NCBI GenBank assembly: GCA_021404905.1 | Contig: QWHN01000001.1 | Span: 194,162-258,161 of the forward strand | Source of the DNA: Candidatus Saccharibacteria bacterium CPR2 | Lineage (GTDB): Bacteria > Patescibacteriota > Saccharimonadia > Saccharimonadales > QWHN01 | Reading direction: 5' to 3' | DNA length: 64,000 nt | Shown here: positions 11,033 through 58,646 of the stretch, in pieces | How positions within the stretch are numbered: the stretch's first letter is position 1 | Layout: each line of letters begins with the position of its first letter | Program-made: the position numbers and the translations under genes | The notes under the pieces: model-generated | Databases searched by the model: none | What the model was told of the DNA's origin: nothing | Seen by the model: the letters and a program-made list of their open reading frames with translations, nothing else

Positions 11033-11190
11033 AAGGATTAGTATATAGTATGGAGTATAGAGTATGAAGTATGAAGTATGGGCGTTGGAAAATAGCAATT
11101 GGGAACTAGCAATTGGCAATTAGAAACTGGAAATTAGTTTTTAAAAATATACTATTTTCTATTTTCTAATTGCTATTTTCCAATTGCTAG
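11033..11190. repeat. Inverted heptamer-array element, copy E1
   Basis: In-phase 7-bp units (agtatga, tagcaat, tgggaac and similar) flank the centre tagtttttaaaaatatacta. The exact 22-mer is at 11142-11163. The element fills the whole intra-operon spacer. Confidence 0.9.
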
Positions 11191-13616
11191 CCCCCGTTCC
11201 CGCCGAACATAGACCTATAGGCATCTATAAATGAGCGCATTTCGCGTACAGCTTCCTGGGCGGATTGGGTATATCCAAGTGGCTGGTTTGTATCTGGGTC
11301 TCTTTCTGTACCAGTCATGGTTCTTTCGGTTGCCTGAACTGCTTTTTCGTAGAGTCCTCTTACTTGCAACCCAAAATCTGAATTTAAGTCAATTCCCTCA
11401 AGGTCGTGACTCTCAATCATGCCACTGGTAGCGTAGCGCCAAAATGATCCGCTTTGCCGCCCAAGCGCGTATGAATCTACGGATCTGTCAACAAACTCTG
11501 TCATACTCTTAAAGCTTTTAACTAGCTTTTGAGGAGGCAAGTTCATAGGAGTGGGAACTGAAGCATCGTGAGCTGGCCTCTGAGCTTTAAAGTAATCGCC
11601 ACGGTCATAAAATTTGTGTTGAAGCTGAGTGTCTTTGTTGTTATACCAAACACCCTCGGCAATTTCGTTTTTAACATCTGGCTCCCATTTGCTGGCACGT
11701 AATCCTTCCCAAACTCGGGTTTGGTCTTCCTCAGTCAGAGATTTACTCATTGCATAATTTAATGCAGCCTGAAGTTTGCCGCGGCTTATGCCATGGCTTT
11801 TTACCTGAGCCATCAGCTCGTCATTATAGAAGTCGCTTTTTGTGGCAAGGCCAGCTTCTTCCCACCTGCCTTCAGCACGATTATAACTTCCCAGCATGGC
11901 AGCGCCATTTCGGGTCATAATGCTTCCGTCGGGGTTATATAAAAAGTGCTTACCCATCTTTAAATAACCCGAATTTGCTGTTCCGCCATCAGCAGTACCA
12001 ATTTTGGTGCCCTTATACCGTCCGCCTCCAGTCATTGCTATTGCGCGCACCACATCATCGTGTCCGGTTCCAATAATCTCGCTTGCCCATTTTTGCCCCT
12101 CGCTCAAATCGTTAATTAAACCAGCGCGGTTATTAATTCCGGGTACTCTGTTCATCAAAGTTCTAACGGGTAAGTAACGACTGTTTGGTATTCCCATAAA
12201 TCTTTTTTCTCCACGCATGGCTCGGCCGATCTCCCTGGATCTGTGAGACCTAACCTTGCTTCTGAGAGAATTTGGATCTCTATGGTCGCCTTTAACTTTA
12301 TCCCCAGCGCCTCTAAGGACATTACCCAGCGCAGCGACACCCGCGCCAGCCCATTTAAACGTTGCGGTCATGAGGAAAAACGGCGCGAAGGTCGCGATAA
12401 AACCTATTGAAGTATCCACAAAATTTGTGTTTTCTCCAGCAATAGCCAAACGGCCCATTAGTTGACCGGCAGAGATAAGCACCACGATTATTGGGTACAT
12501 AAGCAAAGCTTTAAAAAATATACTCCACCAGGTTTTAAAATATTGCTCGGTGTTTGGGAGGATCCACAAAACAAATGCCACCGGCGCGACGACCATTAAT
12601 GAAATAATGATTAGATTTCTGAGGATTAAGACTACAAAAAGAATAATTAGGCCTGTGATTCCAGCCAGGAACAATGCCAAAAAGAAATAATAAAGCGCAT
12701 AGCCAATAGCAATAACACCCGGAATAGCCAAAACATTAGTGAGCATAATGTCAAAGGCTTCATTTCCGCTTATGCCGGTTTCGGTAAATAATTTATTGCC
12801 GTTGTTACTAAAAAGTCCGGAAATTTCAAACTGAGCCATTCCATCCAATGGAGCCATGACTAGCTGGCCCACTCCCGCGCCAAGCGTATTAACCATATTA
12901 ACTGTTAGCGTTACGACCACGAAAGACAGTTGAATAAGAATAGAGCCAATTAAAAGTCGTGGTAGCATTTTTTTAACATTGTATGTTTCAAGGATAGAAC
13001 CCGTTGCCTGGGCGTAAATTATAAACATAAACACGATAATGATGGCCACGTTTGCCAAAACGCGAAAACCATTCCAGACTTTTTCCAAAGAGTCTCCATA
13101 TTTGTCTAGGTCAAGTTCAAGCAAATTAAAAACGACATTTTCCATCAACCACCTCATGGCGCTGTAAATTGGGCGCAAGACGGCGCACAGTAGCCAGCCC
13201 ACCGGACCGGCATTGCTTTCACAAGTACTCTCTTGCGGTTTGTTATCTGTGCTTAAAACCTCCGTATTTGAAATTGAAATTGTTTGAGGCGGACCGATTG
13301 CGATGCAGGGTTGCCCGTCTCGATACACATAGAGCGCTCCAGAAGCGGGGTTGTTTGCTGATATAACAATTTCGTTCGGGCAGGTCACACCAGACTGTGA
13401 GCGAAATTTTTGTCTGTCGTCGCTGGTTTGTTTATATTTTTCGTTACCCCAAATGATGGTTTGTGAGTCCGCCCACCTCGGGCTTGAATTGTTTTGAGCG
13501 CTAACGGGACCAGAAAAAAGAAAGGTGTTTAAAATTGCAAAAACAAAGAACGCAGACAAAACTGTGCCGGAAAACTTGCTGAATTTACCCCATTTTTTCG
13601 GGGCGGCAATTTTCAT
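11187..13616 (-). CDS. VirB6/TrbL-like polytopic T4SS membrane protein, paralog B
   Basis: 809 aa with a signal peptide, a small Cys-containing ectodomain, about 6-7 TM helices and a C-terminal tail of about 350 aa. It shares the blocks WNGFRVLANV and KKMLPRLLIGSILIQLSF with the 15552-18482 protein. Confidence 0.65.
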   Translation of the reverse strand: MKIAAPKKWGKFSKFSGTVLSAFFVFAILNTFLFSGPVSAQNNSSPRWADSQTIIWGNEKYKQTSDDRQKFRSQSGVTCPNEIVISANNPASGALYVYRDGQPCIAIGPPQTISISNTEVLSTDNKPQESTCESNAGPVGWLLCAVLRPIYSAMRWLMENVVFNLLELDLDKYGDSLEKVWNGFRVLANVAIIIVFMFIIYAQATGSILETYNVKKMLPRLLIGSILIQLSFVVVTLTVNMVNTLGAGVGQLVMAPLDGMAQFEISGLFSNNGNKLFTETGISGNEAFDIMLTNVLAIPGVIAIGYALYYFFLALFLAGITGLIILFVVLILRNLIIISLMVVAPVAFVLWILPNTEQYFKTWWSIFFKALLMYPIIVVLISAGQLMGRLAIAGENTNFVDTSIGFIATFAPFFLMTATFKWAGAGVAALGNVLRGAGDKVKGDHRDPNSLRSKVRSHRSREIGRAMRGEKRFMGIPNSRYLPVRTLMNRVPGINNRAGLINDLSEGQKWASEIIGTGHDDVVRAIAMTGGGRYKGTKIGTADGGTANSGYLKMGKHFLYNPDGSIMTRNGAAMLGSYNRAEGRWEEAGLATKSDFYNDELMAQVKSHGISRGKLQAALNYAMSKSLTEEDQTRVWEGLRASKWEPDVKNEIAEGVWYNNKDTQLQHKFYDRGDYFKAQRPAHDASVPTPMNLPPQKLVKSFKSMTEFVDRSVDSYALGRQSGSFWRYATSGMIESHDLEGIDLNSDFGLQVRGLYEKAVQATERTMTGTERDPDTNQPLGYTQSAQEAVREMRSFIDAYRSMFGGNGG

Positions 13617-13636
13617 TTTTCCATATTTCTCCGTTG

Positions 13637-14242
13637 TTATTCACCTAAAAGGCGATTTATTTCGTCCTCAATTCTTTGTTCTTCTTCTGGAGTTAGGCAA
13701 CCGTTTTCTACGTCAAAGTCGAGCATCAATGAGGCAGTATTAGTTAGATTTTCCCTTTTTCTTGAGTCTTCAGTAACTTTCGCTTCATCTATAACGTTGC
13801 TAACTTGCCCCTCCGCGTCGTGGCAGATCGCGTCATTTTCCGGCGCGGTCACTTGGCTTTTATCGATTTCGTTGCCGTTAACGCCGGTGACAGTATCCTC
13901 TTGTTTGTCATTATCGTCAGTGCAAGCTCTCAGACCACTGAAAAGCACTAATGCGCCAGCGACAGCCACCGCACCGATCTTCACTCTCTTTTTTGTGTAA
14001 GCTATTTGCTTTTCTTTTTCTTCCTTTGCTTGTTGCTCATCTTTCTTCTTTTTCTCTACTGCGATAGCATACTCAATAGCCTCTTTATCAAGCTTAGCGG
14101 GGTCAACTTCGGCGTTGCGTGGGTCTCTTACCACCTCTCTATAGGCATCGCTATCTCTGAGTTCTTTTAGGCGAGCCTTTCGAGCTTTTTCTACAGCGTC
14201 TCTCGCGTCTTTATCTGGATCATGATTTGCTTTTTCAGCCAT
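13637..14242 (-). CDS. Hypothetical single-pass membrane protein with a K/E-rich N-terminus
   Basis: 201 aa with an AAGGAA RBS and one TM helix (IGAVAVAGALVLFSGL). I recognised no motif. Confidence 0.5.
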   Translation of the reverse strand: MAEKANHDPDKDARDAVEKARKARLKELRDSDAYREVVRDPRNAEVDPAKLDKEAIEYAIAVEKKKKDEQQAKEEKEKQIAYTKKRVKIGAVAVAGALVLFSGLRACTDDNDKQEDTVTGVNGNEIDKSQVTAPENDAICHDAEGQVSNVIDEAKVTEDSRKRENLTNTASLMLDFDVENGCLTPEEEQRIEDEINRLLGE

Positions 14243-14486
14243 TTTTTCGTTCCTTATTTAAACTACTAAATATCTTAGGAGCATGCGAAATAAATCGAGC
14301 GAAGTCTTGGCTAAAGACAAGTCTTTGCGATCAATCTCACAAGCCGGCACAAGTAAACCAACCCCCAGAGGTCGAACACATATATTTCTATCACAAAACA
14401 GAGGTAAAGTCAAACGACTATCTATAATTCGCTGAAGACACCCAAAACAATACTAGGGCAGCATAATCACTAGTCCAACCCAGAGT

Positions 14487-19751: not shown

Positions 19752-20180
19752 ATGAAAAATATTATTTCGGTTTTGATAGTTTCCTTCGGGATGTTTTTTG
19801 TGCTGAATTTTGGGTTGGTGGCAAACGCTGGTTCTATCCAGGCTGTGCATCAATATGGAGTATTTAATCCAGACAATTGCCCAAAAGACGGTGCCCAAGT
19901 TCCAGTTGAACAGAATTGTATAATCACCGAAATCCTGGTGCCGATAGTAAGATTTTTATTAGTTGGGGTTGGGGTTGTTGTCACGGTTATGATCGTACTT
20001 GGCGGGATTCAGTACTTAACATCAGAAGGCAATCCTCAACGAATCGCGGCGGCGAAGTCAAAAATAATGAATGCACTCATCGCTCTTTTAATCTGGGCAT
20101 TTATGGGCTTAATCCTAAACTGGCTGATTCCTGGTGGCATACTTAATATTGGTTTGGGTAACGACATTCCTAATCTATGA
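19752..20180 (+). CDS. T4SS pilin (VirB2/TrbC-like), paralog 1
   Basis: It has a signal peptide, a Cys pair (NCPKDG...QNC) and two TM helices joined by GGIQYLTSEGNPQRIAAAKSKI. The stop overlaps the next start (ATGA). Confidence 0.7.
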   Translation: MKNIISVLIVSFGMFFVLNFGLVANAGSIQAVHQYGVFNPDNCPKDGAQVPVEQNCIITEILVPIVRFLLVGVGVVVTVMIVLGGIQYLTSEGNPQRIAAAKSKIMNALIALLIWAFMGLILNWLIPGGILNIGLGNDIPNL

Positions 20181-20779
20181 CTATTCAACCTTTTGTACTA
20201 TTTGCTCAGCAGTGCGCCGATAAATCTATATTTGGCATTCCAACCTGGTATAAATATTTAAACTGTACAAATGGTGTCCCCGACATAGACGCGACCACCC
20301 AGGAGGGGCTTAACTCTGTTTGGCTTATAGGCGCCGCGGTGCTTGAGATGTTAATGGTTGTGGTGGGTATTGCCTCTGTTGCGATGATAATCTACGCCGG
20401 TTTAAAATTTATTATGAGTCAAGGCAACCCAGAACACGTCAAACAAGCTCGTGATACCATTTGGAATGCGATAATTGGGCTTGGAATCGCGTTGATCGCC
20501 TCAAACTCTGTGTCTTACGCTGCCAATCAACTTTATGGAAAGCCTGCGGACCAAAGCACAATAACGGCTGTTATTTTACCTTTTGTGTTTCGTCTGGCCG
20601 GCGCCCTGGCGGTGCTGTACATAGTTATATTCGGCGCCCTCAGATACATTATGTCTGGCGGCAATCCTAACGACACCAAACAGGCAAGGGACGCGATAAT
20701 TTATGGATTAATAGGCATAGCCGTAATAGTCACGGCTTATTTAATAGTTCAATTCGTAGTTGGGAGGCTTACCTCGTGA
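20177..20779 (+). CDS. Tandem-duplicated T4SS pilin carrying two VirB2-like modules in one ORF, paralog 2
   Basis: The pilin motif occurs twice: YAGLKFIMSQGNPEHVKQARDTIWNAIIG and FGALRYIMSGGNPNDTKQARDAIIYGLIG. There are four TM helices and an N-terminal Cys pair. Confidence 0.7.
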   Translation: MTIQPFVLFAQQCADKSIFGIPTWYKYLNCTNGVPDIDATTQEGLNSVWLIGAAVLEMLMVVVGIASVAMIIYAGLKFIMSQGNPEHVKQARDTIWNAIIGLGIALIASNSVSYAANQLYGKPADQSTITAVILPFVFRLAGALAVLYIVIFGALRYIMSGGNPNDTKQARDAIIYGLIGIAVIVTAYLIVQFVVGRLTS

Positions 20780-21180
20780 GAGCTTTTCGTATATTTTTTT
20801 TGATCTTTAGCGCCTTTATAATTTTCGCTATGTTTAATAATGTTTCGCGCGGTGTAGTTTTTGCTCAAGGTCCGGAATTTCAGGAAATTTGCAATAGAGC
20901 CCCAGACCCAAAACCGGATTTTTGTAATAACCCAAACTCTGGAAAAGATCCACTCACAGGCAAGGACGGCATAATTACCAAAGCTACTCAAACAATGGTT
21001 TACCTCGTGGGTGTTCTTTCTGTAATTATGATAATGATTGCTGGCATTAGATTTGTTATGTCAAACGGCGACCCAGCCGGAGTTAAAGGGGCCAGAGACG
21101 CCCTGCTATACGCTGTGATTGGAATAATTATCGGATTTTCGGCACAACTTTTGGTTTGGTTTGTGCTAAGGAGATTATAA
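20776..21180 (+). CDS. T4SS pilin (VirB2/TrbC-like), paralog 3
   Basis: A GTG start overlaps the previous stop, with a GGGAGG RBS. The motif is AGIRFVMSNGDPAGVKGARDALLYAVIG, and the Cys pair is EICNRAPDPKPDFC. Confidence 0.7.
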   Translation: MRAFRIFFLIFSAFIIFAMFNNVSRGVVFAQGPEFQEICNRAPDPKPDFCNNPNSGKDPLTGKDGIITKATQTMVYLVGVLSVIMIMIAGIRFVMSNGDPAGVKGARDALLYAVIGIIIGFSAQLLVWFVLRRL

Positions 21181-21182
21181 AA

Positions 21183-21494
21183 ATGAGAGTACAAGATTTT
21201 TTCGCCGCTTCAAAAGATACAATTTGCAAAGGTATTGGTGTGGGCGGAGGTGATTGCAATAATCCTGGCGGAATTGGCCCTGTTATAAGTAAGGTGACCA
21301 CCGCGATTGCATTTGTCGTGGGGGGTATTTCGATAATAATGATTATTGTCGGTGGAATTCGGTATGTTATGTCTGCTGGCGATCCCAACGGCGCAAAAGG
21401 CGCGAAAGATACCATCATGTATTCGCTAATTGGTTTGGTGATCGCTATTGCTGCCTACGCAATTGCCAACTGGGTTGTCGATATAGTTACTTAA
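21183..21494 (+). CDS. T4SS pilin (VirB2/TrbC-like), paralog 4
   Basis: I chose the ATG at 21183 because it has an AAGGAG RBS. The motif is GGIRYVMSAGDPNGAKGAKDTIMYSLIG, and the Cys pair is ICKGIGVGGGDC. Confidence 0.7.
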   Translation: MRVQDFFAASKDTICKGIGVGGGDCNNPGGIGPVISKVTTAIAFVVGGISIIMIIVGGIRYVMSAGDPNGAKGAKDTIMYSLIGLVIAIAAYAIANWVVDIVT

Positions 21495-21539
21495 CTGTGA
21501 TATATTGAAAATAAATAAACATTAGCATTTAGGAGGCAT

Positions 21540-21959
21540 ATGATAAGCTCAGTAATCAAAAATCGCACGATCCGCAAATCTGTATTTGTGTCACTTTTTG
21601 CGTCTGGCCAAATAGTTTTAAACTCTGCTTCTGTATTCGCGCAAACTGCCAAGGAAATCTGTGAAGGCAGTGGTGGCACATGGGATGGTAGCCAGTGTGT
21701 TAGAGATGGCGACCCGGGTTTGTTTGGCCCGGGCGGTTTATTTGAAAAAATAGCCAACGCGTTGCTATTTATAGTCGGCGCGTTGTCTGTGGTGATGTTG
21801 ATTGTTGGCGGTATACGCTATGTTACCTCGGGGGGCGACTCCAATGCGGTTCAAGGCGCGAAAAACACAATTTTGTACGCGATAGTCGGGATTGTAGTTG
21901 CCTTTCTAGCCTTCGCGGCTGTTAATTGGGTGATAAACGCTCTTGGGGCAACTTCTTAA
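21540..21959 (+). CDS. T4SS pilin (VirB2/TrbC-like), paralog 5
   Basis: It has an AGGAGG RBS and a signal peptide. The Cys pair is EICEGSGGTWDGSQC, and the motif is GGIRYVTSGGDSNAVQGAKNTILYAIVG. Confidence 0.7.
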   Translation: MISSVIKNRTIRKSVFVSLFASGQIVLNSASVFAQTAKEICEGSGGTWDGSQCVRDGDPGLFGPGGLFEKIANALLFIVGALSVVMLIVGGIRYVTSGGDSNAVQGAKNTILYAIVGIVVAFLAFAAVNWVINALGATS

Positions 21960-22018
21960 ATTATGGTATATTCTATATGAGTAAAAATTGTTATAATCCA
22001 CGCTAAGGAGAATAAGAT

Positions 22019-22420
22019 ATGACCATAAAAGATAAACTCAAAGTCCATTCAATAACAGGAGCAACTACCGTTGCTGGTGTTTTAGCTTTAAGCAATGGAG
22101 TAAGCGCGCAATGCGATCCATCAAGCGGTAGTATTGGTCAGGGCGTACAGTGTGCGAAACCAAAAGGCGCAGCTGAAGAATTATTCGGTGATGGAAGTAT
22201 ATTTCAAACAATAACCAACGCGCTGTTATTCTTGGTTGGAGCTATATCTGTGGTAATGCTGATCGTTGGGGGCGTCAGGTACGTAGTCTCTGCTGGTGAT
22301 CAAAATGCGGTTCAAGGCGCGAAAAACACAATTTTGTACGCTATAGTCGGTATTGTGGTTGCCTTTCTAGCCTTCGCGGCTGTTAATTGGATCACAACTT
22401 CTCTGGCAGAAGGATCCTAA
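22019..22420 (+). CDS. T4SS pilin (VirB2/TrbC-like), paralog 6
   Basis: It has an AAGGAG RBS. The Cys pair is QCDPSSGSIGQGVQC, and the motif is GGVRYVVSAGDQNAVQGAKNTILYAIVG. Its 3' end is nearly identical to that of paralog 5. Confidence 0.7.
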   Translation: MTIKDKLKVHSITGATTVAGVLALSNGVSAQCDPSSGSIGQGVQCAKPKGAAEELFGDGSIFQTITNALLFLVGAISVVMLIVGGVRYVVSAGDQNAVQGAKNTILYAIVGIVVAFLAFAAVNWITTSLAEGS

Positions 22421-22561
22421 TAGATAGCAAATAGCAGTTGGGAACTAGCAATTGGCAATTAGAAAATAGGAATTAGTTTTTAAAAATATACTATTTTCTA
22501 TTTCCTAATTGCTGTTTCCTAACATCTATACGCCATACTGCATACTCTATACTCTATACCC
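22421..22561. repeat. Inverted heptamer-array element, copy E2
   Basis: Seven left units (caaatag through gaattag), a centre with the exact 22-mer at 22481-22502, and ten right units (ttttcta through tactcta). It fills the convergent gap between the last pilin gene and argS. Confidence 0.9.
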
Positions 22562-25043: not shown

Positions 25044-25194
25044 GTGGGAACTGGAAAACAGAAAAACAGGAAACAGCAATTAGGAAATAGAAAATAGTAT
25101 ATTTTTAAAAAACTAATTCCTATTTTCTAATTCCCAACTCCTAGTTCCCATTTGCTGTTTTCCGTAATCTAAACAATAGTAAGGGTGCCACCCT
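25044..25194. repeat. Inverted heptamer-array element, copy E3, with the centre in reverse orientation
   Basis: The exact reverse-complement 22-mer is at 25086-25107. The element ends with agtaagggtgccaccct at 25178-25194, a partial reverse copy of the GGGTGGCACCC module. Confidence 0.85.
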
Positions 25195-28399: not shown

Positions 28400-28431
28400 A
28401 ACAGCAAAGACTATACTCTATAATCTAAGAT

Positions 28432-29170: not shown

Positions 29171-29457
29171 ATAGTATGAAGTATATAGTATGCAGTATAG
29201 CGTATAGAAATTAGGAAACAGCAATTAGAAAATAGAAAATAGTATATTTTTAAAAACTAATTCCTAGTTCCCAAGTTTCATTCGCTTTGTAGCGAATAAA
29301 TTTTCAAATTCTTTTTGCTAGTTGCCAGTTGTTAGTTGCTCTCTTGAAGGGTGGCACCCTTACTACTGATTTCTACTAATTCCCAATTCCTTATTTCTAA
29401 TTTCAATTTTCTGGTTGCCAATTGCTGTTTTCTAATTCCCAGTTGCCAATTCCTAAC
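29171..29457. repeat. Inverted heptamer-array element, copy E4 (composite)
   Basis: It has GTAT-type heptamers and the reverse 22-mer at 29231-29252. It also has the hairpin attcgct-ttgt-agcgaat at 29280-29297, the 85-bp module at 29335-29419, and further heptamers. Confidence 0.9.
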
Positions 29458-29502
29458 TTTTTCCTTGTATCACGAGATCGAACTAGCGTATCATATTAAT
29501 CT

Positions 29503-30237: not shown

Positions 30238-30250
30238 CTTTAAGATACAG

Positions 30251-30316: not shown

Positions 30317-30334
30317 TCGACTGGAGGTCGAGCA

Positions 30335-47039: not shown

Positions 47040-47077
47040 GGCTCTGAACTCGATATATCTATAATTTCTCTTGCGAT

Positions 47078-47097
47078 AAAAGCTTTTCAAGCTTTTT
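47078..47097 (+). terminator. Candidate intrinsic terminator after tsaD
   Basis: The stem is AAAAGCT-tttca-AGCTTTT, running into T. Confidence 0.45.
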
Positions 47098-47324
47098 GAT
47101 CGCCCTACTTTTTCTCTCCAGCAAGAAAAAGTAGGCAAAAAGTGCCGCCCAAGCTCAAAAAACTGCCCTTGTCTCTCGTTTCGCTAAAAACAGACTAAAC
47201 TTGCGGAACTCTCCGCTGTAGGGCGGATCAGACAGTCCTCAGTTTAATCTGTTTCAGCTTACTTAAACAAAGGTGTTTTTTGAGAAGGGGGTTAAGACGA
47301 TAGTTTAAGAATAACCAGTGTGGA

Positions 47325-47410
47325 CGTTGGAAACTAGAAACTAGTTTTTAAAAATATACTATTTTCTATTTCCTAATTGCTGTTTCCTAATTTCTATACT
47401 TCATATTCTA
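47325..47410. repeat. Inverted heptamer-array element, copy E6, with a truncated left arm
   Basis: The exact 22-mer is at 47349-47370. The right units read ttttcta tttccta attgctg tttccta atttcta tacttca tattcta. Confidence 0.85.
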
Positions 47411-47587
47411 CGGGCTTTGATTGTGCAAAACCCATTTGTATTATCTTGCTATTGAGTTAAAATAGGGGAGTAAAACAAACACGTGAAATCAGTAGTGGGG
47501 ACATAGCAGATAGCACACAGCCCGTGTGTTGTGGTTTAGTTTTTTCACGTGAAATCAAAATAGTAATTAAAAGGGGCAATTTTTTGT

Positions 47588-50164
47588 ATGAGCTTGCCTA
47601 AGATTTATGAGCCGCACGCATACGAGTCCGATGTGTACCAAGCATGGGAAAAGAGTGAGGCATTTCTTCCAAAAAACAGGGGAGATCACCGCGCTTTCAG
47701 TCTGGTTATGCCCCCACCCAATGCAAATGGCAACCTGCATATTGGACATGCTCTTACTAACGCGATTCAGGACGTTATGGTTCGCTTTGAAAGAATGCGA
47801 GGCAAAGCTAGTTTATATCTTCCTGGGGCAGATCATGCTGGTTTTGAAACCTGGGTTGTTTACGAAAAGCAACTGACAGCACAAGGAAAAACGCGCTTTG
47901 ATTTTTCTCGATCAGAGCTGTATAGCCAGGTCTGGAATTTCGTAGAACAAAATAAGGAAGATATGCTTGCCCAGCTCAGAGAGTTGGGAGCTAGTTGTGA
48001 CTGGTCACGGTTTACTTACACTCTGGATGAAAAAGTTGTTGCCACTGCTTATGAAACGTTCAATAAAATGTGGAAAGATGAGCTGATCTACAGGGGTGAG
48101 CGCATAGTAAATTATTGCACCAATCACGGAACTTCTTTTTCTGACATCGAAGTAGTTTATAAGTCTGATAAATCAAAACTTTGGTATATAGATTATCCAC
48201 TGAGCGATGGCAGCGGTAGTATCCAGGTTGCAACCACCCGTCCTGAAACAATGCTAGGGGACACGGCCGTAGCAGTACATCCTAAAGACGAAAGATACAA
48301 GAAACTTGTAGGTAAAATGGTGAGGTTACCTCTGTGTGATCGAGAAATTCCAATTATTGAAGATGAAGCTATAGATCCTGAATTTGGTACCGGAGCGGTT
48401 AAGGTCACGCCGGCACACGACCCCAATGATTACGATATCGCCTCTCGTCATAATCTTGAATTTGTTAGAATTATTGACTTTGAAGGCAAGATTACAGATT
48501 TAGCTCCGAAAAGATTTCAAGGGCAAAGCGTAGAGGAGGCTAGAGAGCATGTCGTTACTGCCTTGAAAAAAGAAGGGGCATTGGCAAAAGAAGAGGATTA
48601 TGAACATAGTGTCGGACATTGCTATAAATGCGATAGCGTCATAGAGCCCCTGCTAAAAGACCAGTGGTTCGTAAAAATGGCTCCTCTTGCAAAGAAGGCC
48701 ATTGAAGCTATTAAAAACAAAGATATCTCGTTTTTTCCTAAATCAAAGGGTAGCCAATTATTGCGTTATCTGGAAAACATTCGCGATTGGAATATTAGCC
48801 GTCAAATCGCTTGGGGAATACCAATTCCTGCTTACCAAAACGCAGATGATCCTAATGATTGGATATTTAACAGTGATGTAGGGCAGGAAACTCTGGAGAT
48901 AGACGGGAAAACTTATAAAAGAGACCCGGACGTATTTGATACCTGGTTTTCCTCTGGGCAATGGCCATTTGTAACATTGGGCTACCCCAAATCTTCAGAC
49001 TACAAGCATTTTTATCCTCTTAGCGTTATGGAAACCGGAGGTGAAATTCTATTTCAATGGGTGGGCCGCATGATAATGTTGGGGCTATACATTACTAAAA
49101 ATGTTCCTTTTAAAGATGTTTATATTCATGGCTATGTGTTAGACGAGCATGGAGCTAAGATGAGCAAATCAAAGGGCAACGTCATCGCGCCAAAAGAGAT
49201 CATCAAAGAATATGGCTCAGACGCATTGCGCATGGGGTTAATTGCCGGCAGATCTGCTGGATTAAACCAGGGTTTTAGTACTGCTAAAATTGTCGGAGCG
49301 CGTAATTTTTGCAACAAATTGTGGAATGCGGCCCGTTTTGTAGAATCTCAATGCCCAGAAGGTTATAAGCTGTCAAAACCTCACCCCAAAACCATGGTTG
49401 ACTACTGGATGCTAGAGCAATTAAGAGTTAAGGCGCAAACAATTACCCAAAAACTAGAGAATTATCAATTCACGGAAGCTTATGAAACAATTTATCACTT
49501 GCTTTGGGATGATTTCGCGGATTGGTATATAGAGGTATCAAAACATCAACTAAACAAAGATGTTTTGGCATTCGGTCTTATTAACATATTGAAGTTAGCC
49601 CATCCCTTTGCGCCTTTCGTTACGGAGTCGATTTGGAGAACACTGGCTTGGGAAAAAGACATGCTGATAATTAACGGTTGGCCGCAGCTTAAATACTCAT
49701 ATGAAAAAGAGTCAAAAGACTTTTCTCGTATTCAAGACGTAGTTTCAGAAATTCGTTATCTAAGATCACAACTCCATTTAACAGAGAACAATTTGTACTA
49801 CAAGGACAGTCCTTTTATTAAAGCCAACGCTGATTTAATAGTAGCTCTTACCGGCCTCTTGGGATGCCATGAGGTAAGTTCCGGGCATGGCCTTCATTTA
49901 ACCAGGGCGAACGTTGATGCCTGGATAGACGTTGAAGAAAACGCCATGCGCGATTATTTAATCAAACTTCTTGAGGAAAGAGATGCCCATATGGAAGAGT
50001 TAAAAATTCTGGAAACACGACTGGAAAATAAATCGTATTTGAAATCGGCTCCGCACCATATAGTTGAGGAAACCAGAACCAAACTCGCGGAAAAGAAGAA
50101 CCTTATTGAACGGTTTAAAGATGAGGTTGATTTTATCGAGATATCCCTGAAGAGATACTTGTAG
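47588..50164 (+). CDS. valS: Valine--tRNA ligase
   Basis: It has PPPNANGNLHIGHAL (HIGH), KMSKSKGN (KMSKS) and a C-terminal coiled coil. Confidence 0.95.
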   Translation: MSLPKIYEPHAYESDVYQAWEKSEAFLPKNRGDHRAFSLVMPPPNANGNLHIGHALTNAIQDVMVRFERMRGKASLYLPGADHAGFETWVVYEKQLTAQGKTRFDFSRSELYSQVWNFVEQNKEDMLAQLRELGASCDWSRFTYTLDEKVVATAYETFNKMWKDELIYRGERIVNYCTNHGTSFSDIEVVYKSDKSKLWYIDYPLSDGSGSIQVATTRPETMLGDTAVAVHPKDERYKKLVGKMVRLPLCDREIPIIEDEAIDPEFGTGAVKVTPAHDPNDYDIASRHNLEFVRIIDFEGKITDLAPKRFQGQSVEEAREHVVTALKKEGALAKEEDYEHSVGHCYKCDSVIEPLLKDQWFVKMAPLAKKAIEAIKNKDISFFPKSKGSQLLRYLENIRDWNISRQIAWGIPIPAYQNADDPNDWIFNSDVGQETLEIDGKTYKRDPDVFDTWFSSGQWPFVTLGYPKSSDYKHFYPLSVMETGGEILFQWVGRMIMLGLYITKNVPFKDVYIHGYVLDEHGAKMSKSKGNVIAPKEIIKEYGSDALRMGLIAGRSAGLNQGFSTAKIVGARNFCNKLWNAARFVESQCPEGYKLSKPHPKTMVDYWMLEQLRVKAQTITQKLENYQFTEAYETIYHLLWDDFADWYIEVSKHQLNKDVLAFGLINILKLAHPFAPFVTESIWRTLAWEKDMLIINGWPQLKYSYEKESKDFSRIQDVVSEIRYLRSQLHLTENNLYYKDSPFIKANADLIVALTGLLGCHEVSSGHGLHLTRANVDAWIDVEENAMRDYLIKLLEERDAHMEELKILETRLENKSYLKSAPHHIVEETRTKLAEKKNLIERFKDEVDFIEISLKRYL

Positions 50165-50340
50165 GAATTTGGAATCAGCAACTAGCAATTAGGAATTAGT
50201 TCTTGAAAACACTAGTCTCTATTTCCTAATTCCCAGTTTCTAGTTCCTAGATGCTAATTCCCAACTCCTAGTTCCCAATTTCTGGTTCCTATTTCCTAGT
50301 TGCCAATTTCTAGTTCCCAGTTCCCAATTGCTATTTCCTA
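50161..50340. repeat. Inverted heptamer-array element, copy E7, with a diverged centre
   Basis: Five left units are followed by 18 consecutive in-phase right units at 50215-50340, with consensus (G/A)TT(C/T)C(C/T)A. The element overlaps both flanking stop codons. Confidence 0.92.
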
Positions 50341-51189
50341 GCTCCTGTTTCCCTCTATGGCTTGCCTGATGCGTTCTACAGACTCTTCCGGACGATAGTC
50401 GTCAAACCACAAGACTTGCCAGCCGCGTTTTTCAGCAGCCATAAGGTTAATTCGGCTGTCATCTACAAACAAAATTTGATTGCCGCTATAACGAGCTTTC
50501 TTCTCGGCAATTTCATAAATACGTGGTTCCGGCTTAATTGCTCCTTCTATGGATGAGTCTACAATTGCAGAGTAGGGGAGATCTGGCAAAATTTTCTTTT
50601 CTATCATGTAACCTAAAAATCCCGGAGCGATGTTTGTAAGTAAACCAATTTTGACACGAGACGATATGTGCTCTAGAAACCCCTGGACTATTTTTATCGG
50701 TGATACAGCATTCATATAGTGTTTTTGCCAATCTACAGATTGAACTCGCAAATGGCCTGCGATTGCCTTGTTAAATTCCTCAACGCTCATCTCGCCCCTG
50801 CAAACGGCATCATTGTAGTGCCAAAACGTACTCTCAACTTTTTCTGGACTGGCGCCAGCTTCACGCGCCAAAGTTGTGAACGCTCTTTGAAAAAACCGCA
50901 CCAGCACGCCATTGACGTCGCAGTAAAGAAATTTGACAGCTTGATCGTCCTCAATGACTTCACTCGTTGCAGTTTTATTGATCGGCAAAGCTGCTAACGC
51001 GTCGATGGACATGTTTAATGCCTGCGCTATTGCCGCAATAGTTCCGAACGTTGGGTTTTTTATGGCACCTCGTTCAATCTTTGCTAACGTAGAATATGCC
51101 AATCCAGCTCTGTCAGATAGATCATCTTGCGTAAAACCCGCTTCTTTTCTCGCCTCTTGGATGCGTTTGCCAAGCTCTGATGTGTCCAT
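50338..51189 (-). CDS. Fusion protein: N-terminal XRE-family HTH domain plus C-terminal HAD-superfamily hydrolase-like domain
   Basis: The HTH is LGKRIQEARKEAGFTQDDLSDRAGLAYSTLAKIERG. HAD-like motifs are YCDVNGVL, LLTN and LFVDDS. Confidence 0.7.
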   Translation of the reverse strand: MDTSELGKRIQEARKEAGFTQDDLSDRAGLAYSTLAKIERGAIKNPTFGTIAAIAQALNMSIDALAALPINKTATSEVIEDDQAVKFLYCDVNGVLVRFFQRAFTTLAREAGASPEKVESTFWHYNDAVCRGEMSVEEFNKAIAGHLRVQSVDWQKHYMNAVSPIKIVQGFLEHISSRVKIGLLTNIAPGFLGYMIEKKILPDLPYSAIVDSSIEGAIKPEPRIYEIAEKKARYSGNQILFVDDSRINLMAAEKRGWQVLWFDDYRPEESVERIRQAIEGNRS

Positions 51190-51642: not shown

Positions 51643-51725
51643 CTCTATATACAGTATAGTGTATGGGGAAATTAACAAATAGCAATTGGAAATTAGAATC
51701 TAGAATCTAGAATCTAGAAGCTAGT
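51643..51725. repeat. Heptamer array, copy E8, a partial element
   Basis: The units read tacagta tagtgta tggggaa attaaca aatagca attggaa attagaa, then tctagaa three times. A matching TATAC-type arm lies near 51830-51856. Confidence 0.75.
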
Positions 51726-51902
51726 TAAAAGCTATCAAGTTCGTAAAGTTATAAAGTGCTTTTTGAAGTTTACTAATTTGTAATTTATTTGATATTTGTA
51801 TATTGGGATTTGAGATCTTATGAAGTATACGCCATACTGCATACTCCTGGTCTACCACAGTAGATTGGTGCTTATAAAAACAATGCACTATACTGGTTAT
51901 GG

Positions 51903-54234: not shown

Positions 54235-54326
54235 TGGCGGAGAGGGTGGGATTTGAACCCACGGTACCTAATGAAAGGCACAACGGTTTTCGAGACCGTC
54301 CAGTTAAGCCACTCCTGCACCTCTCC
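54235..54326 (-). tRNA. tRNA-Ser(CGA), CCA encoded
   Basis: The reverse complement reads GGAGAGGTGCAGGAGTGG...ACGGT-CTCGAAA-ACCGT...long variable arm...GGGTTCAAATCCC...CCTCTCCGCCA. Confidence 0.9.
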
Positions 54327-54370
54327 GTATATAGAACATTTTAATACTTTTTAGGATCCGCTGCAGATAT

Positions 54371-54393
54371 AACAAAACCACCCTCTAGGGTGG
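54371..54393 (-). terminator. Intrinsic terminator downstream of the tRNA-Arg/GIY-YIG unit
   Basis: On the minus strand the sequence reads CCACCC-taga-GGGTGG followed by TTTTGTT. Confidence 0.55.
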
Positions 54394-54399
54394 CAATAA

Positions 54400-54417
54400 T
54401 GGCGTACCCGGCAGGAT
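54400..54417 (-). other. Orphan copy of the tRNA-Arg 3' end (18 nt, including CCA)
   Basis: tggcgtacccggcaggat is identical to 54582-54599, the acceptor 3' strand plus part of the T-arm of tRNA-Arg. Confidence 0.85.
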
Positions 54418-54581
54418 ATCGGCCTCATTTTTTCGGCCTCCTTCGTTTGCTCGCAAAAATATACAAGTGCATTTTTGCTTCGCTACACTTCGCCGAACCT
54501 GGTGCTATGCACCGCAGGTTCGAATCTTCTTATTAACAAGTTTTAAAGTAAATAATAAAAGAGTATCTAGCGAGTATCACC

Positions 54582-54658
54582 TGGCGTACCCGGCAGGATT
54601 CGAACCTGCGGCCTCTGGCTCCGCAAGCCAACGCTCTATCCAGCTGAGCTACGGGTAC
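54582..54658 (-). tRNA. tRNA-Arg(GCG), CCA encoded
   Basis: The reverse complement reads GTACCCGTAGCTCAGCTGGATAGAGCG-TTGGC-TTGCGGA-GCCAG...GCAGGTTCGAATCCTGC-CGGGTAC-G-CCA. Confidence 0.88.
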
Positions 54659-54931
54659 TTATGTATCAACTGATTTAATATAACCATCTTTAATGATTTT
54701 CTCAATGAAATCTTTGCGTTTCCAAGACTTAAGCTTATTTTCTAACTTTCTAGCTATTTTAATACTTGAAAATTCTTGACTAAATTTCAAAATGCATTCA
54801 TCTCCTAAACGAACAGTGCTTGGAGTATAGCCAGATCTGTGTTGCTTAATTCTTCTTGCTAAATCAATTGTGCTACCAATGTAATATTTATCTGACTTTG
54901 GAAAGTAAAGTATATATACAAATGCGTTCAT
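54659..54931 (-). CDS. GIY-YIG nuclease-family protein (small, URI-domain only)
   Basis: The N-terminus MNAFVYILYFPKSDKYYIGSTIDLARRIKQH carries the GIY...YIG...R motifs. The stop codon abuts nt 1 of tRNA-Arg. Confidence 0.85.
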   Translation of the reverse strand: MNAFVYILYFPKSDKYYIGSTIDLARRIKQHRSGYTPSTVRLGDECILKFSQEFSSIKIARKLENKLKSWKRKDFIEKIIKDGYIKSVDT

Positions 54932-54994
54932 ATCCAGCTCCGACGTTATCAGTCGGAGTCCCGATTGTAAACATCGGGACTGAGCTACGGGTAC
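54931..54994 (-). other. Interrupted copy of the tRNA-Arg 5' end: nt 1-15, a 42-nt insert forming two hairpins, then nt 16-22
   Basis: On the minus strand: GTACCCGTAGCTCAG + TCCCGATgtttacaATCGGGA + CTCCGACtgataacGTCGGAG + CTGGATA. The last A is the first base of the GIY-YIG ATG start. Confidence 0.85.
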
Positions 54995-55151
54995 AAATGA
55001 AAACCGTCGCTAACCGTCCCGCTAAATGCGGGACAGTTAGGCAACACATTGAGTAAAAGGAGCTTTCCAAAATTTTGATTTTTGGAACAGGGGTCACTAT
55101 AACACACTTCTACTAGCAAAACAAAGTGGAAAACTTGGATTGATAAAACAG

Positions 55152-55913
55152 TTAAAAACGTATTTGGCGAGCCAGCCTGTCTATAAAATCAGGCTCTTTA
55201 TCTTCGTGTGGCAGTTGCAAACTTAGAATGTTAATTATTTGATCTTTATGAGCAGGATCAAAATATATAGAAATTCCTGGCATAAATCGTTTCAGCGGCA
55301 AAAATTCTATACTCTCAATACCCCCATCATGAAGAATGTTAAAAGATCTAAATTGATCAAAACGATAATTTTTATTGCCGATTGATAGCCCTTCTGGAGT
55401 AATTGAATATTGTAGAACTTCCGGTTTACGTTGAGCATAGACAATAACAGTCACAGCCATCAAAATAACGACCATAGCTGCCCAAATATCAACTACGAAG
55501 TAAAGAGCAACGGCAAATATTATTGCAATCAGACTTAAAATTGCAAACCACCCGACACCTTTTTGATGATGAACATATTCAGAAGCCTCCCATGTGATTG
55601 TATTCTCTCCCTTTGATCCGTGAGCAATATCAACATGAGACTGGCCACGTACATTTTGGAGTTCATGACGTTGGGTTTCAGATTGATGAGAACCTAGGTC
55701 TTTGTTTGTCTCTTTATTTTGCTCTTTCTCATTTTCAATATTTTCTCGTGGTAAATCTTCTTTCCTGCTTTCATTAACTTGACTTAAAGAACTAGGTTCC
55801 GGAGAAACCACTACTGTTTCCTGGTTTGGTTGTATAGTTTGTCCTGGAGTAAATTGACTTACTGACTCATCTGAATTTGCCTGATCTGATAATTCATTTG
55901 TCTCATTACTCAT
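55152..55913 (-). CDS. Hypothetical membrane protein: acidic low-complexity N-terminus, two TM helices, small C-terminal domain
   Basis: 253-aa ORF with a TM pair (WFAILSLIAIIFAVALYFVV and WAAMVVILMAVTVIVY). Confidence 0.5.
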   Translation of the reverse strand: MSNETNELSDQANSDESVSQFTPGQTIQPNQETVVVSPEPSSLSQVNESRKEDLPRENIENEKEQNKETNKDLGSHQSETQRHELQNVRGQSHVDIAHGSKGENTITWEASEYVHHQKGVGWFAILSLIAIIFAVALYFVVDIWAAMVVILMAVTVIVYAQRKPEVLQYSITPEGLSIGNKNYRFDQFRSFNILHDGGIESIEFLPLKRFMPGISIYFDPAHKDQIINILSLQLPHEDKEPDFIDRLARQIRF

Positions 55914-56066
55914 ATTACAGACCAGTATACCCCATAAAACATATTAAAAAAACATAAGGAATATACTAAAACTTGGTCGCCTCGATTATCGAACCTATGT
56001 GTTCGAATCTTTCTCTTTCCATCAAAAGAGAAACGGCTGCACATAAACGTGCGACCGCCTCTCTCT

Positions 56067-56156
56067 TGGCGGAGAGGCAGGGATTCGAACCCTGGGTGCC
56101 ATTGCTGGCACACCGGTTTTCAAGACCGGCTCCTTAAACCGCTCGGACACCTCTCC
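56067..56156 (-). tRNA. tRNA-Ser(TGA), CCA encoded
   Basis: The reverse complement reads GGAGAGGTGTCCGAGCGG...CCGGT-CTTGAAA-ACCGG...GGGTTCGAATCCC...CCTCTCCGCCA. Confidence 0.9.
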
Positions 56157-56264
56157 TCATCTAAAGTGTATAGTATTTACAGATTGTAATTCAACAATAA
56201 TTCCCTCTTGGGTAAATAACAAACTTGTCTTACAATCTATAAGACCATAGATTATGGGCGTAAA

Positions 56265-56357
56265 GGAGAGGTACCCAAGAGGCTGAAGGGGACGGTTTGC
56301 TAAATCGTTAGTCCCGAGCAATCGGGAGCGAGGGTTCGAATCCCTCCCTCTCCGCCA
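56265..56357 (+). tRNA. tRNA-Ser(GCT), CCA encoded
   Basis: The sequence reads GGAGAGGTACCCAAGAGG...ACGGT-TTGCTAA-ATCGT...long variable arm...GGGTTCGAATCCC...CCTCTCCGCCA. Confidence 0.9.
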
Positions 56358-56410: not shown

Positions 56411-56456
56411 CACTGTCAATTGCCTAATTTCCAATTCCCAGTTGCTATTTCCAAGC
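56411..56456. repeat. Heptamer array, copy E9, one arm only
   Basis: The units read cactgtc aattgcc taatttc caattcc cagttgc tatttcc, between tRNA-Ser(GCT) and the convergent gene. Confidence 0.7.
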
Positions 56457-56459
56457 TTT

Positions 56460-57882: not shown

Positions 57883-57912
57883 TTGCATATTTACTAATAG
57901 TTTGGATATAAT
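57883..57912 (+). promoter_or_regulatory. Candidate sigma-70 promoter of the hsp20 gene
   Basis: TTGCAT, an 18-nt spacer, then TATAAT, about 55 nt upstream of the ATG. Confidence 0.45.
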
Positions 57913-57966
57913 GCTAGTTATAATTTAATGAAGCCATGTGTTCGTTAGGTAATAAGTGGAGGTGTT

Positions 57967-58431
57967 ATGGCTCGACGACAAAAACAAGATGACGATTTGC
58001 TAATGGAGGATGAGTTAGCGGCAGCTTTTCTGGAAGAAGATACTCAATCCGAACCAGACAACGCACAAGCTGCAGGGCAGGATGATTGGGACGAAGATGA
58101 TACCATCCCCGGACAACTCGCTGTCGATGTCTACGAAACCAAAGAAAAATTAATCGTAAAAGCGCGAACAGCTGGTGTAAACAAAGATGATCTTGATGTT
58201 AGTATTGCGGATAATACCCTAACAATACGCGGGACTTTGTCTTCTGGCGAAGAAGTCGAAGCAGAGAACTATCACATCCAAGAATGTTACTGGGGTGAGT
58301 TTTCTAGAACCCTAACACTGCCAGTGCCGGTTAAAGAAGATGAAGTTGAAGCAGTATTAAAAGACGGTGTGCTTACTATTTCGTTTAATAAAGTTAAGCA
58401 AGATACTGTCAAGAAAATACAAATACAGTAG
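57967..58431 (+). CDS. Small heat-shock protein (Hsp20/alpha-crystallin family)
   Basis: It has an alpha-crystallin domain (PGQLAVDVYETKEKLIVKARTAGV...GVLTISFNK) and a GGAGG RBS. Confidence 0.85.
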   Translation: MARRQKQDDDLLMEDELAAAFLEEDTQSEPDNAQAAGQDDWDEDDTIPGQLAVDVYETKEKLIVKARTAGVNKDDLDVSIADNTLTIRGTLSSGEEVEAENYHIQECYWGEFSRTLTLPVPVKEDEVEAVLKDGVLTISFNKVKQDTVKKIQIQ

Positions 58432-58440
58432 TTGCCTCGT

Positions 58441-58646
58441 ATTAAGTATAGAGTATAGAAATTGGGAAACAGCAATTAGAAACTAGGGATTAGTTTTTAA
58501 AAATATACTATTTTCTATTTCCTAATTCCCGATTGCTAGTTGCTCTCTTGAAGGGTGGCACCCTTACTACTGATTTCTACTAATTCCCAATTCCTTATTT
58601 CTAATTTCAATTTTCTGGTTGCCGATTGCTAGTTCCTAGTTTCTAG
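58441..58646. repeat. Inverted heptamer-array element, copy E10 (composite)
   Basis: The exact 22-mer is at 58498-58519, the 85-bp module is at 58539-58623, and further heptamers follow (ctagttc ctagttt ctag). Confidence 0.9.

Follow-up and report, generated by a model that had tools for sequence, protein, structure and literature searches.

Inverted heptamer arrays form a family of palindromic intergenic repeats in a Saccharibacterium

Heptamers are the commonest class of long simple sequence repeat (SSR) in prokaryotes, and their function is given as unresolved, as far as the original survey is relayed in a later paper (Mrazek 2007, via PMC4679880). In Xanthomonas, each genome carries 70 to 75 inverted pairs of GGGAATC heptamer arrays with stem-loop potential; in a second species, 83% of the pairs are flanked by the same genes but differ in length, and their function has not been established (PMC4692102). 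TAACTGA repeats occur in Beggiatoaceae, Cyanobacteria, and Bacteroidetes (MacGregor 2015, PMC4679880). Here, we analyze a family of palindromic, heptamer-built intergenic elements in a 64,000-nucleotide stretch of Candidatus Saccharibacteria bacterium CPR2 (GenBank assembly GCA_021404905.1, contig QWHN01000001.1, positions 194,162 to 258,161), referred to below as the window. Eleven copies, numbered E1 to E11 here (Table 1), had been listed in a preliminary description of this DNA.

Systems that are not heptamer SSRs also bear on the comparison. Correia elements can generate promoters at either end and bind integration host factor (IHF) and RNase III, the latter cleaving or protecting them (PMC2649163). 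The ribbon-helix-helix (RHH) protein omega/ParB of pSM19035 has contiguous WATCACW heptads as its binding sites, some direct and some inverted (PMC9499535). SDR5 of Nostoc is described in a citing paper as a very small mobile sequence of the Nostocaceae that uses the HIP1 octamer as its insertion site, and no SDR-like repeats are reported there outside that family. Elhai et al., in 2008, reportedly put the length of Nostoc SDRs at 21 to 27 nt.

A period of seven dominates the repeat structure of the window. When 56-nt segments were scanned at lags of 1 to 21 with a threshold of ≥62% self-match, 365 segments passed at lag 7, and no lag other than 7 and its multiples reached the threshold; the autocorrelation check that the preliminary description had proposed thus leaves lag 7, with its multiples, as the sole strong periodicity. 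Tandem Repeats Finder placed period-7, -14, or -21 arrays at all 11 of the previously listed sites, and in-phase units are visible at each when the sequence is written out as 7-mers. A phase-aware unit scan found 19 arrays of at least four in-phase units (128 units), against 0.1 in shuffled sequence. The 22-mer TAAAAATATACTATTTTCTATT has seven exact copies in the window (five forward and two reverse complement, all at the positions and on the strands first given for them) and no match in 100 dinucleotide shuffles. Nearly all period-7 bases are intergenic (1,446 of 1,533, or 94%), and they make up 20% of the window's 7,076 intergenic bases; period-7 DNA is present in 14 of the 29 gaps of ≥90 nt.

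We used Logan contigs from SRA runs as an independent short-read check. The gene/element junctions were reproduced with identical sequence in contigs of 13 different runs, and a contig of SRR7663064 is 100% identical to the window over 4,794 nt that include all of E8 and E9. The preliminary description had allowed that the elements might be an assembly or scaffolding artifact, and the breaks of short-read contigs do often fall within the arrays. However, 13 independent runs repeat the junctions and whole elements base for base, and another species has related arrays at orthologous gaps. Because the junctions are alike in 13 assemblies, the elements are not an assembly artifact, an explanation to which we assign virtually no chance. 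The heptamer palindromes are a real family of intergenic repeats. The genes of the window encode a Gram-positive-type type IV secretion system (T4SS), a PrgI-like protein, six pilin paralogs, aminoacyl-tRNA synthetases, Mur ligases, and GroES/EL. This content suits the host, which is a Saccharibacterium and not a cyanobacterium; the ArgRS gene beside E2 matches a protein of Candidatus Saccharibacteria bacterium CPR2 (taxid 2293640) with 100% identity.

The anatomy of the elements was derived by anchoring seven copies on their shared center. A left arm of purine-rich N-A-A-N-T-R-G units is followed by an A/T center and a right arm of reverse-complement units. The unit logo, pooled from 133 units with no per-unit filtering, carries 0.2, 1.06, 1.04, 0.28, 0.92, 0.79, and 1.39 bits at positions 1 to 7; variation is restricted to positions 1, 4, and 6, and adjacent units mostly differ. 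The shared center reads T5-6 A5 TATA. The in-phase architecture around a TAG/CTA-bounded center that was initially reported holds in outline; the center, put there at 17 to 18 bp, measures 14 nt (T5) or 15 nt (T6) between TAG and CTA, and phase continues across it in five of the seven copies. Full copies also have outer arrays of a second unit type, AGTATRR to the left and CYATACT to the right, so that E6, at about 170 nt, reads (AGTATRR)n, (NAANTRG)n, the 14- to 15-nt A/T center, (CYANTTN)n, and (CYATACT)n. The 11 copies range from 46 to 290 nt, are small, non-coding, and dispersed, and have inverted arms as in a MITE (miniature inverted-repeat transposable element); open reading frames (ORFs) that overlap them are only short, low-complexity reads. 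Intergenic position, palindromy, occurrence in gaps of every gene orientation (convergent, divergent, and codirectional), and stop codons that are abutted or supplied by the elements were all seen as first claimed. Some labels and limits have changed: the copy formerly called E5, with 12 left and 10 right units, is the one at 33355-33526, the former E7 is the one at 50161-50340, and the copy listed as 51643-51725 is present on the plus strand and runs to about 51850.

The copies are related over more than their units. The center and the first five right units (about 50 nt) are near-invariant in six of seven copies, and the order of right-arm units is identical in four. E1 and E2 are 91% identical over 94 nt, and E4 and E11 share a 134-nt module with 90% identity (29309-29442 and 58513-58646). 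Because unlinked copies have the same unit order, they descend from a master palindrome of about 170 nt, best kept in E6, and are not independent local expansions. In all seven paired arrays of the window, the A-rich arm comes first. A small G+C hairpin module, GAAGGGTGGCACCCTTACTA, was found in three copies, at 25176-25194 (minus strand), 29345-29365, and 58549-58569; it always adjoins a heptamer array and in E4 and E11 is part of the 134-nt repeat.

We compared the window with its closest relative, a species in sample ERR4450749 (here Sp.B; contigs L011, L263, and L266), which is syntenic with it over about 44 kb. Protein identities are 73% for ArgRS, 86% for ValRS, and 84% for MacB, and genes are 72 to 78% identical at the DNA level. 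Arrays are present in Sp.B at 5 of 10 comparable gaps: those orthologous to E2, E3, E7, E8, and E9 hold a palindromic array of the NAANTRG class, A-rich arm first, with different centers (TTTGCAATCCC, ACTCTAGCCTCCAACC, CAGAGATTATGCTCTA, TAGAGATTGCAATCTA, and AGCATAATATTTACTG). The Sp.B gaps orthologous to E4, E5, E6, E11, and the groES-groEL array have none, the groES-groEL spacer there being 56 nt long and heptamer free. Over the ~44 kb, no array was found that is present in Sp.B yet missing here. Period-7 arrays were likewise not found at the same genes in three outgroup relatives (L012, L264, and L267); in L264, the stops of ValRS and the HTH-HAD gene are 7 nt apart, versus a 173-nt element here. 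Together, these comparisons indicate a family whose origin postdates the split from the outgroups and which went on spreading in this species.

E5 provides the clearest insertion site. The stop of the ABC-ATPase gene and the start of MacB overlap as ATGA in Sp.B and in one outgroup, and the other outgroup has ATAATG; the insertion of E5 splits the ancestral ATGA overlap and leaves both reading frames intact. Its sequence is identical in four SRA runs, and it is flanked by a 5-nt direct repeat, AATGA. E5 is the only element at which a target-site duplication could be defined, since divergence blurs the boundaries of E4, E6, and E11. Correia elements have a TA target duplication. The early suggestion of a mobile MITE- or REP (repetitive extragenic palindromic)-like element gains from five elements that are absent from Sp.B, including the filled sites of E4, E5, E6, and E11 without a counterpart there, from the 5-nt duplication, and from the lack of any Rfam match; it is weakened by the single definable duplication.

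Resident copies also change in place. In the SRR29849817 strain, E3 has an indel of ~27 nt (four units) together with a T5/T6 change, between identical flanks. In the SRR33243633 strain, the core of E11 is inverted between its inverted arms, and because the core inverts in this way, it faces either direction in different copies. Paralogous elements within the genome are 78 to 92% identical over aligned columns, while orthologous elements share 72 to 74% identity with Sp.B at far lower coverage. Because paralogs are more alike than orthologs, a core of 22 to 50 nt must, on these identities, have spread or been homogenized after the species split, at the five old loci too. We infer that this exchange between copies took the form of gene conversion or replacement.

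The arrays have direct consequences for the ends of genes. All A-type units have TAG or TGG as their last three bases, and because the 7-nt period is not divisible by 3, a few units are enough to close every reading frame. E1, E2, and E8 lie flush against stop codons both here and in Sp.B, and at E8 the heptamer phase takes in the ValRS TAG and the last HTH-HAD codons.

The outer CYATACT units face outward and may act at gene starts. The arrangement TTCATA-17-TATACT-7 nt-ATG precedes both PGI (E6) and the PrgI-like gene (E1), in neither case with a Shine-Dalgarno (SD) motif; in Sp.B, the SD-bearing AAGGGGGA lies seven nt before the PGI ATG, and the upstream region is different. At tRNA-Ser (29155), an outer array has replaced the Sp.B-type upstream sequence in a comparable arrangement. 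An SD motif was found at 17 of 53 protein genes and TANNNT 5 to 9 nt before the start at 13 of 53, and the start regions suggest that leaderless mRNAs are common in this Saccharibacterium. One of the 13 is the 5-FTHF cyclo-ligase gene, whose ATG is preceded by the tandem -10-type heptamers of the mini-array at 28411-28431. We infer that leaderless transcripts at PGI, the PrgI-like gene, and tRNA-Ser have the outer arrays as their -10 boxes. Where promoters are conserved (VIT1, DUF1761, the ValRS leader, and the ABC ATPase), the element sits outside each of them. Two further promoter arrangements were considered and set aside: the center has no acceptable -35 on either strand by eye, and inner T-type units as -35 elements for the outer -10 boxes give unconvincing spacings of 12 or 19 nt.

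The hairpin potential noted in the preliminary description is real for two-armed copies, which fold strongly, and does not extend to one-armed arrays, for which structure prediction gave no folding. As a single strand, E6 has a predicted fold of -62.6 kcal/mol (z = -8.7), and E1, E2, E3, and E8 have z values of -4 to -6. In the alignment of seven cores, 75.9% of in-register arm cells pair, versus 30 to 53% when the partner is shifted by one to three columns. Arms swapped between copies pair at 78.4%, with essentially no compensatory change, and the mismatched stem positions, two of every seven, are positions 1 and 4 of the unit, which are free to vary. The arms are complementary because both are drawn from one unit family and not through pairwise upkeep, and the hairpin is probably not a selected feature. 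Arms acting as intrinsic terminators were rejected: the stems are A/U-rich and mismatched, with no U-run after them by eye. In a 20-kb stretch, a terminator scan found 23 candidates, against 18.8 expected, which is no enrichment; no palindromic arm was matched there, and the sole match within an element was the small GC hairpin of E3. The earlier proposal of a terminator or mRNA stabilizer consequently finds neither covariation nor, by eye, a U-tract in its favor. Rfam covariance models reached gathering score only at tRNAs and gave nothing on any element at E≤1.

The plan of the elements is not confined to this genome. We scanned metagenomes and viral contigs for five units of AAHYRGN, and the counts that follow hold among the matches listed. 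Most matches are monotonous, but at least 37 have three or more distinct units of the five, and many of these varied matches consist of an A-type array, a short unique center, and a complementary array, in contigs of 39 to 65% G+C, and the plan therefore occurs in unrelated organisms. The varied arrays often lie directly before start codons. Among the 99 metagenome arrays listed, a complementary array was found downstream in 17 and upstream in 27, and we dropped the idea of a universal A-rich-first arm order; the 7:0 order in the window may reflect common descent. IMG/VR phage contigs of about 60% G+C (L212, L200, L152, L156, L172, and L186) carry palindromic elements of a different unit class, (CAGTAAT)n, T-rich center, (ACTGATY)n, which occupy many gaps between the genes of a structural module and reach seven in 9 kb. 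Contig L212 encodes head-tail connector, tail-adaptor, and virion-morphogenesis (tail S family) proteins, with the arrays between genes.

Outside the source genome, six single matches to the 22-mer turned up among 185,579 species representatives, in unrelated low-G+C genomes and most likely by chance. The 27-mer center and the 25-mer right arm had no matches in IMG/VR, BLAST searches of plasmid and phage sequences with the window and with E6 as queries returned nothing relevant, and a full-text literature search found no report of the unit strings or of such repeats in Saccharibacteria or Patescibacteria. The palindromic heptamer architecture itself, which had been thought undescribed, was reported as inverted pairs in Xanthomonas by Rehm et al. 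2015 (PMC4692102) and is common in metagenomes and viruses. What differs here is the A/T-rich unit, the homogenized center, the -10-like second unit, the new insertions, and the host.

We consider it an even call that the elements are a MITE-like, heptamer-built palindromic repeat family that incidentally provides stops, outward promoters, and imperfect hairpins. Copies enter new intergenic sites, as the E5 insertion with its 5-nt target-type duplication illustrates. A resident copy would then persist for a long time at its locus while its sequence turns over: 7-nt units are added and removed, the core flips within its inverted arms, and copies exchange sequence with one another. Since the arrays close all frames, elements can butt against or replace gene ends, and outward CYATACT units would act as tandem -10 boxes. 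The inner-arm hairpin probably also punctuates transcripts (by pausing, 3' end formation, or processing) as a by-product and not as a selected feature. In effect, the elements would be portable promoter/stop/hairpin cassettes, working much as Correia elements do in Neisseria. Several points weigh against this account. No transposase, RAYT (REP-associated tyrosine transposase), or other mobility gene was found in the 64-kb window, the element termini are not fixed, and, as noted above, target-site evidence is confined to E5. Five elements have counterparts at the orthologous gaps of Sp.B, a pattern more in keeping with long residence than with frequent transposition. A promoter role cannot be general, given that the right outer array of E2 and the left outer array of E11 face gene 3' ends, where promoters, if active, would yield antisense RNA, and the promoter activity, leaderless starts, and hairpin effect are all deduced from sequence.

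The chief competing explanation holds that these are structured SSRs grown in place without transposition: slippage would expand the heptamers, fold-back copying would make the inverted partners, ectopic gene conversion would make loci alike, and the effects on genes would be incidental. Strain differences in unit number and the five orthologous gaps that keep arrays despite sequence turnover agree with it, as do the Xanthomonas arrays, likewise 83% in the same gene context with differing lengths, the prevalence of heptamers among long prokaryotic SSRs in the relayed survey cited above, and an inverted partner, in either order, for 44 of the 99 listed metagenome arrays of the AAHYRGN class. 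Gene conversion, however, needs homology and cannot seed E5 in a former 4-nt overlap with a 5-nt duplication. The Sp.B counterpart gaps of E4, E6, and E11 are array free, unlinked copies keep the order of different units over 94 to 134 nt, and slippage with random decay does not predict variation only at unit positions 1, 4, and 6. We therefore regard growth in place as somewhat doubtful. The same unit constraint would suit cooperative protein-binding arrays, with one protomer on each 7-nt unit and the protomers of the two arms oppositely oriented, forming a regulatory or nucleoid-organizing system: positions 2, 3, 5, and 7 carry 0.9 to 1.4 bits against 0.2 to 0.3 at positions 1 and 4, the NAANTRG motif is retained in Sp.B, and the arms lack covariation, so that the conserved thing is the unit and not the base pair. 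A precedent exists in mixed-orientation heptads that bind one dimer each and need at least four contiguous units (PMC9499535), and an exact omega-type triplet, (AATCACA)x3, lies in the T4SS cluster. Yet inspection of the window's small ORFs by eye showed no recognizable RHH or cold-shock protein, nor was there an RHH or cold-shock Pfam match among its larger genes; outgroups with the same genes lack the arrays, which would make such a system dispensable, half of the elements are recent gains, and the logo partly mirrors the common descent of the copies. We judge binding arrays quite improbable. A broader version takes NAANTRG as a recognition code for a putative trans-acting factor, one protomer per 7 nt in both orientations, within one regulatory or architectural system shared by this genome, unrelated GC-rich environmental bacteria, and phage structural operons; the factor could act like omega/ParB on WATCACW or like a cold-shock-type domain on single strands, and the arrays here would have become portable promoter/insulator cassettes. 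We think this unlikely. It is highly doubtful that the elements are selected RNA hairpins (bidirectional terminators, insulators, or RNase III/stability sites) placed to punctuate both operons and convergent genes, with a heptamer makeup that is simply how such hairpins evolve in this genome. Three elements do span convergent gaps from stop codon to stop codon, the predicted folds are strong, RNA of either direction reads A-rich arm, loop, and U-rich arm since all seven pairs are A-rich first, and the 20-kb stretch shows no excess of canonical terminators. Against this stand the absence of compensatory changes, with own arms pairing no better than foreign ones, the stem mismatches at two of seven positions, and the lack of a U-tract by eye. 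Moreover, several copies are found upstream of promoters in divergent gaps and need not be transcribed there, the convergent ValRS and HTH-HAD genes of the outgroup are separated by 7 nt without a hairpin, and a strong terminator would be harmful inside the apparent operons where elements also sit.

Table 1. Heptamer elements and other heptamer arrays in the window (positions in the window; A-type, NAANTRG class; T-type, its reverse complement; orthologs are in Sp.B)
Feature	Position	Strand	Structure	Location and ortholog
E1	11033-11190	+	outer (AGTATRR)x6, inner A-type x8, center T5A5TATA at 11138-11151, T-type x5	whole gap from stop of 809-aa gene to ATG of PrgI-like gene, T4SS cluster
E2	22421-22561	+	inner arms with shared center; right outer array (CYATACK)x5	convergent gap from pilin stop to ArgRS stop, filled exactly; ortholog L011:5307-5372, different center
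E3	25044-25194	-	palindrome 25044-25161 (T6 center) plus small GC hairpin module 25176-25194	divergent VIT1/MFS gap, upstream of conserved VIT1 promoter
E4	29171-29459	-	composite: core palindrome and outer array 29171-29271; small hairpin; 134-nt module common with E11 (29309-29442); one-armed T-type array 29369-29459	core and outer array abut tRNA-Ser; T-type array upstream of ABC ATPase gene
E5	30238-30333	+	96-nt insertion: heptamer palindrome 30251-30316 plus SD-containing hairpin (own GGAGG)	flanked by direct repeats AATGA at 30233-30237 and 30334-30338
E6	33355-33526	+	most complete: 6 outer + 6 inner units, T6 center, 5 inner + 5-6 outer units	divergent PGI/hyp193 gap
E7	47325-47410	+	short: 2-3 left units, shared center, 5 inner + 2 outer right units	between TsaD and ValRS leader; ortholog L263:9749-9837 abuts TsaD stop
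E8	50162-50351	+	5 A-type units, variant center TTCTTGAAAACACTAGT, 20 T-type units	fills convergent ValRS/HTH-HAD gap; both TAG stops in heptamer phase; array contains last codons of HTH-HAD gene; ortholog L263:12582-12672
E9	51643-51850	+	older, degenerate: left outer units, A-type array 51668-51724, decayed right arm, right outer units 51815-51845	divergent HIT/hyp364 gap; ortholog a clean palindrome, L263:15456-15540
E10	56411-56456		one-armed T-type array	between tRNA-Ser (+) and stop of minus-strand gene
E11	58441-58649	+	composite: core palindrome 58441-58545, GC hairpin module, one-armed T-type array 58573-58649	between Hsp20 and conserved DUF1761 promoter
Other heptamers	9064-9127		(AAACTGA/GAACTGA)x5 + (TGTGATT)x3	between VirB4-like ATPase and TraC-like genes, T4SS cluster
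(TGTGATT)x3	9106-9127		reverse complement (AATCACA)x3, exact run of WATCACW heptad	
groES-groEL spacer	39975-40006		(T/A)AACTG(A/T) heptamers, unit class of MacGregor 2015	
Mini-array	28411-28431	+	CTATACT CTATAAT CTAAGAT	directly before ATG of 5-FTHF cyclo-ligase, 32-nt divergent gap

We also noted several features in the neighborhood of the elements. Between the TsaD stop and E7 lie 285 nt of non-coding DNA (47040-47324) with no Sp.B counterpart, no notable ORF, and no Rfam match. Upstream of ValRS, at 47420-47587, a promoter-like TTGCTA-17-TAAAAT is followed by a leader of about 110 nt that contains an ACACAC/GTGTGT hairpin and then a T-run; it is conserved in Sp.B (L263:9850-10000), has no Rfam match, and may be an attenuator or a T-box-like leader. 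A Mur-ligase gene at 26990-28399, flanked by the genes for MFS and 5-FTHF cyclo-ligase, has no counterpart at the corresponding place in L011, a difference that is a local gene gain, loss, or rearrangement. Six consecutive T4SS pilin paralogs (PF18895) occupy 19752-22420, the last two of which are recent duplicates (21736-21943 and 22197-22404, 79% identical). Three tRNA-Ser genes and one tRNA-Arg gene cluster at 54235-56357, and a GIY-YIG ORF of 90 aa (54659-54931) directly adjoins tRNA-Arg.

Candidate phyla radiation (CPR) and Saccharibacteria genomes are regarded as streamlined and repeat poor. That about a fifth of the intergenic DNA here is a young, still-changing repeat family is unexpected in such a host. 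The family appears to have rewired housekeeping starts: PGI has lost its SD and has a leaderless-type start instead, and the upstream region of a tRNA-Ser gene was replaced. The PrgI-like T4SS gene has the start geometry of PGI, and E5 splits a translationally coupled ABC-transporter pair. Heptamer repeats, such as the short tandemly repeated repetitive (STRR) sequences and those of Xanthomonas and Beggiatoaceae, have been known for decades without an accepted function. The present family is a compact test case, with two unit types, one of them -10-like, and with Sp.B allowing gain and loss to be dated per locus. Mirror arrays of the AAHYRGN/NAANTRG class in unrelated bacteria and phages imply that whatever makes or uses the arrays may be general, and interest would be higher still if a trans-acting reader of the heptad were found.

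Among known systems, the inverted pairs of Xanthomonas are close in form. Both families consist of intergenic tandem heptamers in two convergent arrays on opposite strands with stem-loop or cruciform potential, here as seven A-rich/T-rich pairs in the window, and both keep their position between the same genes in a relative while length and sequence change (E2, E3, E7, E8, and E9). In contrast, the Xanthomonas unit GGGAATC is G-rich and G-quadruplex capable, whereas the unit here is A/T-rich NAANTRG, with no G-tracts and no G-quadruplex. Further differences are the conserved A/T center, the -10-like outer unit, the common unit order, the lineage-specific gain of half of the copies, and the reduced-genome Saccharibacterium as host. 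The elements also have the marks of heptanucleotide SSRs, with tandem 7-nt units, a mostly intergenic position, and unit-number variation between strains. Like the STRR and TAACTGA repeats, they often touch start or stop codons, differ between strains by indels in 7-nt steps, and have a sporadic phylogenetic distribution, and the window holds (T/A)AACTGA-type sets as well. Arrays of the TAACTGA type, however, are essentially direct, a single set of the 170 found in the BOGUAY genome being inverted, and neither STRR nor TAACTGA arrays have a conserved center or evidence of dispersal as a unit, unlike the elements here.

In their possible effects, the elements resemble the Correia elements of Neisseria, an example of bacterial MITEs (PMC2649163; reviews PMC2229807 and PMC10969869), which are likewise non-coding intergenic palindromes of about 100 to 200 nt that differ between strains. 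Correia elements can create promoters at either end and hairpins in transcripts. Outward promoters are predicted for the present family from the sequence geometry at two genes and the missing SD at PGI. Correia elements have fixed terminal inverted repeats, whereas the arms here are periodic, variable in length, and without fixed ends; there is no sequence relation, the host phylum differs, and the resemblance is functional only. With REP and REPIN sequences (PMC3116915; PMC3733652), the family shares short, multicopy intergenic palindromes, hairpin doublets, and a proposed status as non-autonomous mobile DNA. REPs, however, are G+C-rich palindromes of 20 to 40 nt with GTAG/CGTC heads, the elements here are A/T-rich periodic arrays of 90 to 290 nt, and the window contains no RAYT/Y1-transposase match. 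The homogenized 22-nt core within heptamer arrays may have a parallel in the Nostoc SDRs. The parS sites of pSM19035 are likewise made of contiguous, non-palindromic 7-bp units in mixed orientation, 7 to 10 per site, and overlap promoters. Their unit is WATCACW at six plasmid sites, whereas the main family here has NAANTRG at dozens of chromosomal sites and does not fit that heptad; only the triplet at 9106-9127 does, and no omega-like small ORF was found in the 64-kb window. Set beside these systems, the family joins the inverted heptamer arrays of Xanthomonas in form and the Correia elements, by analogy, in what it may do to the genes around it.

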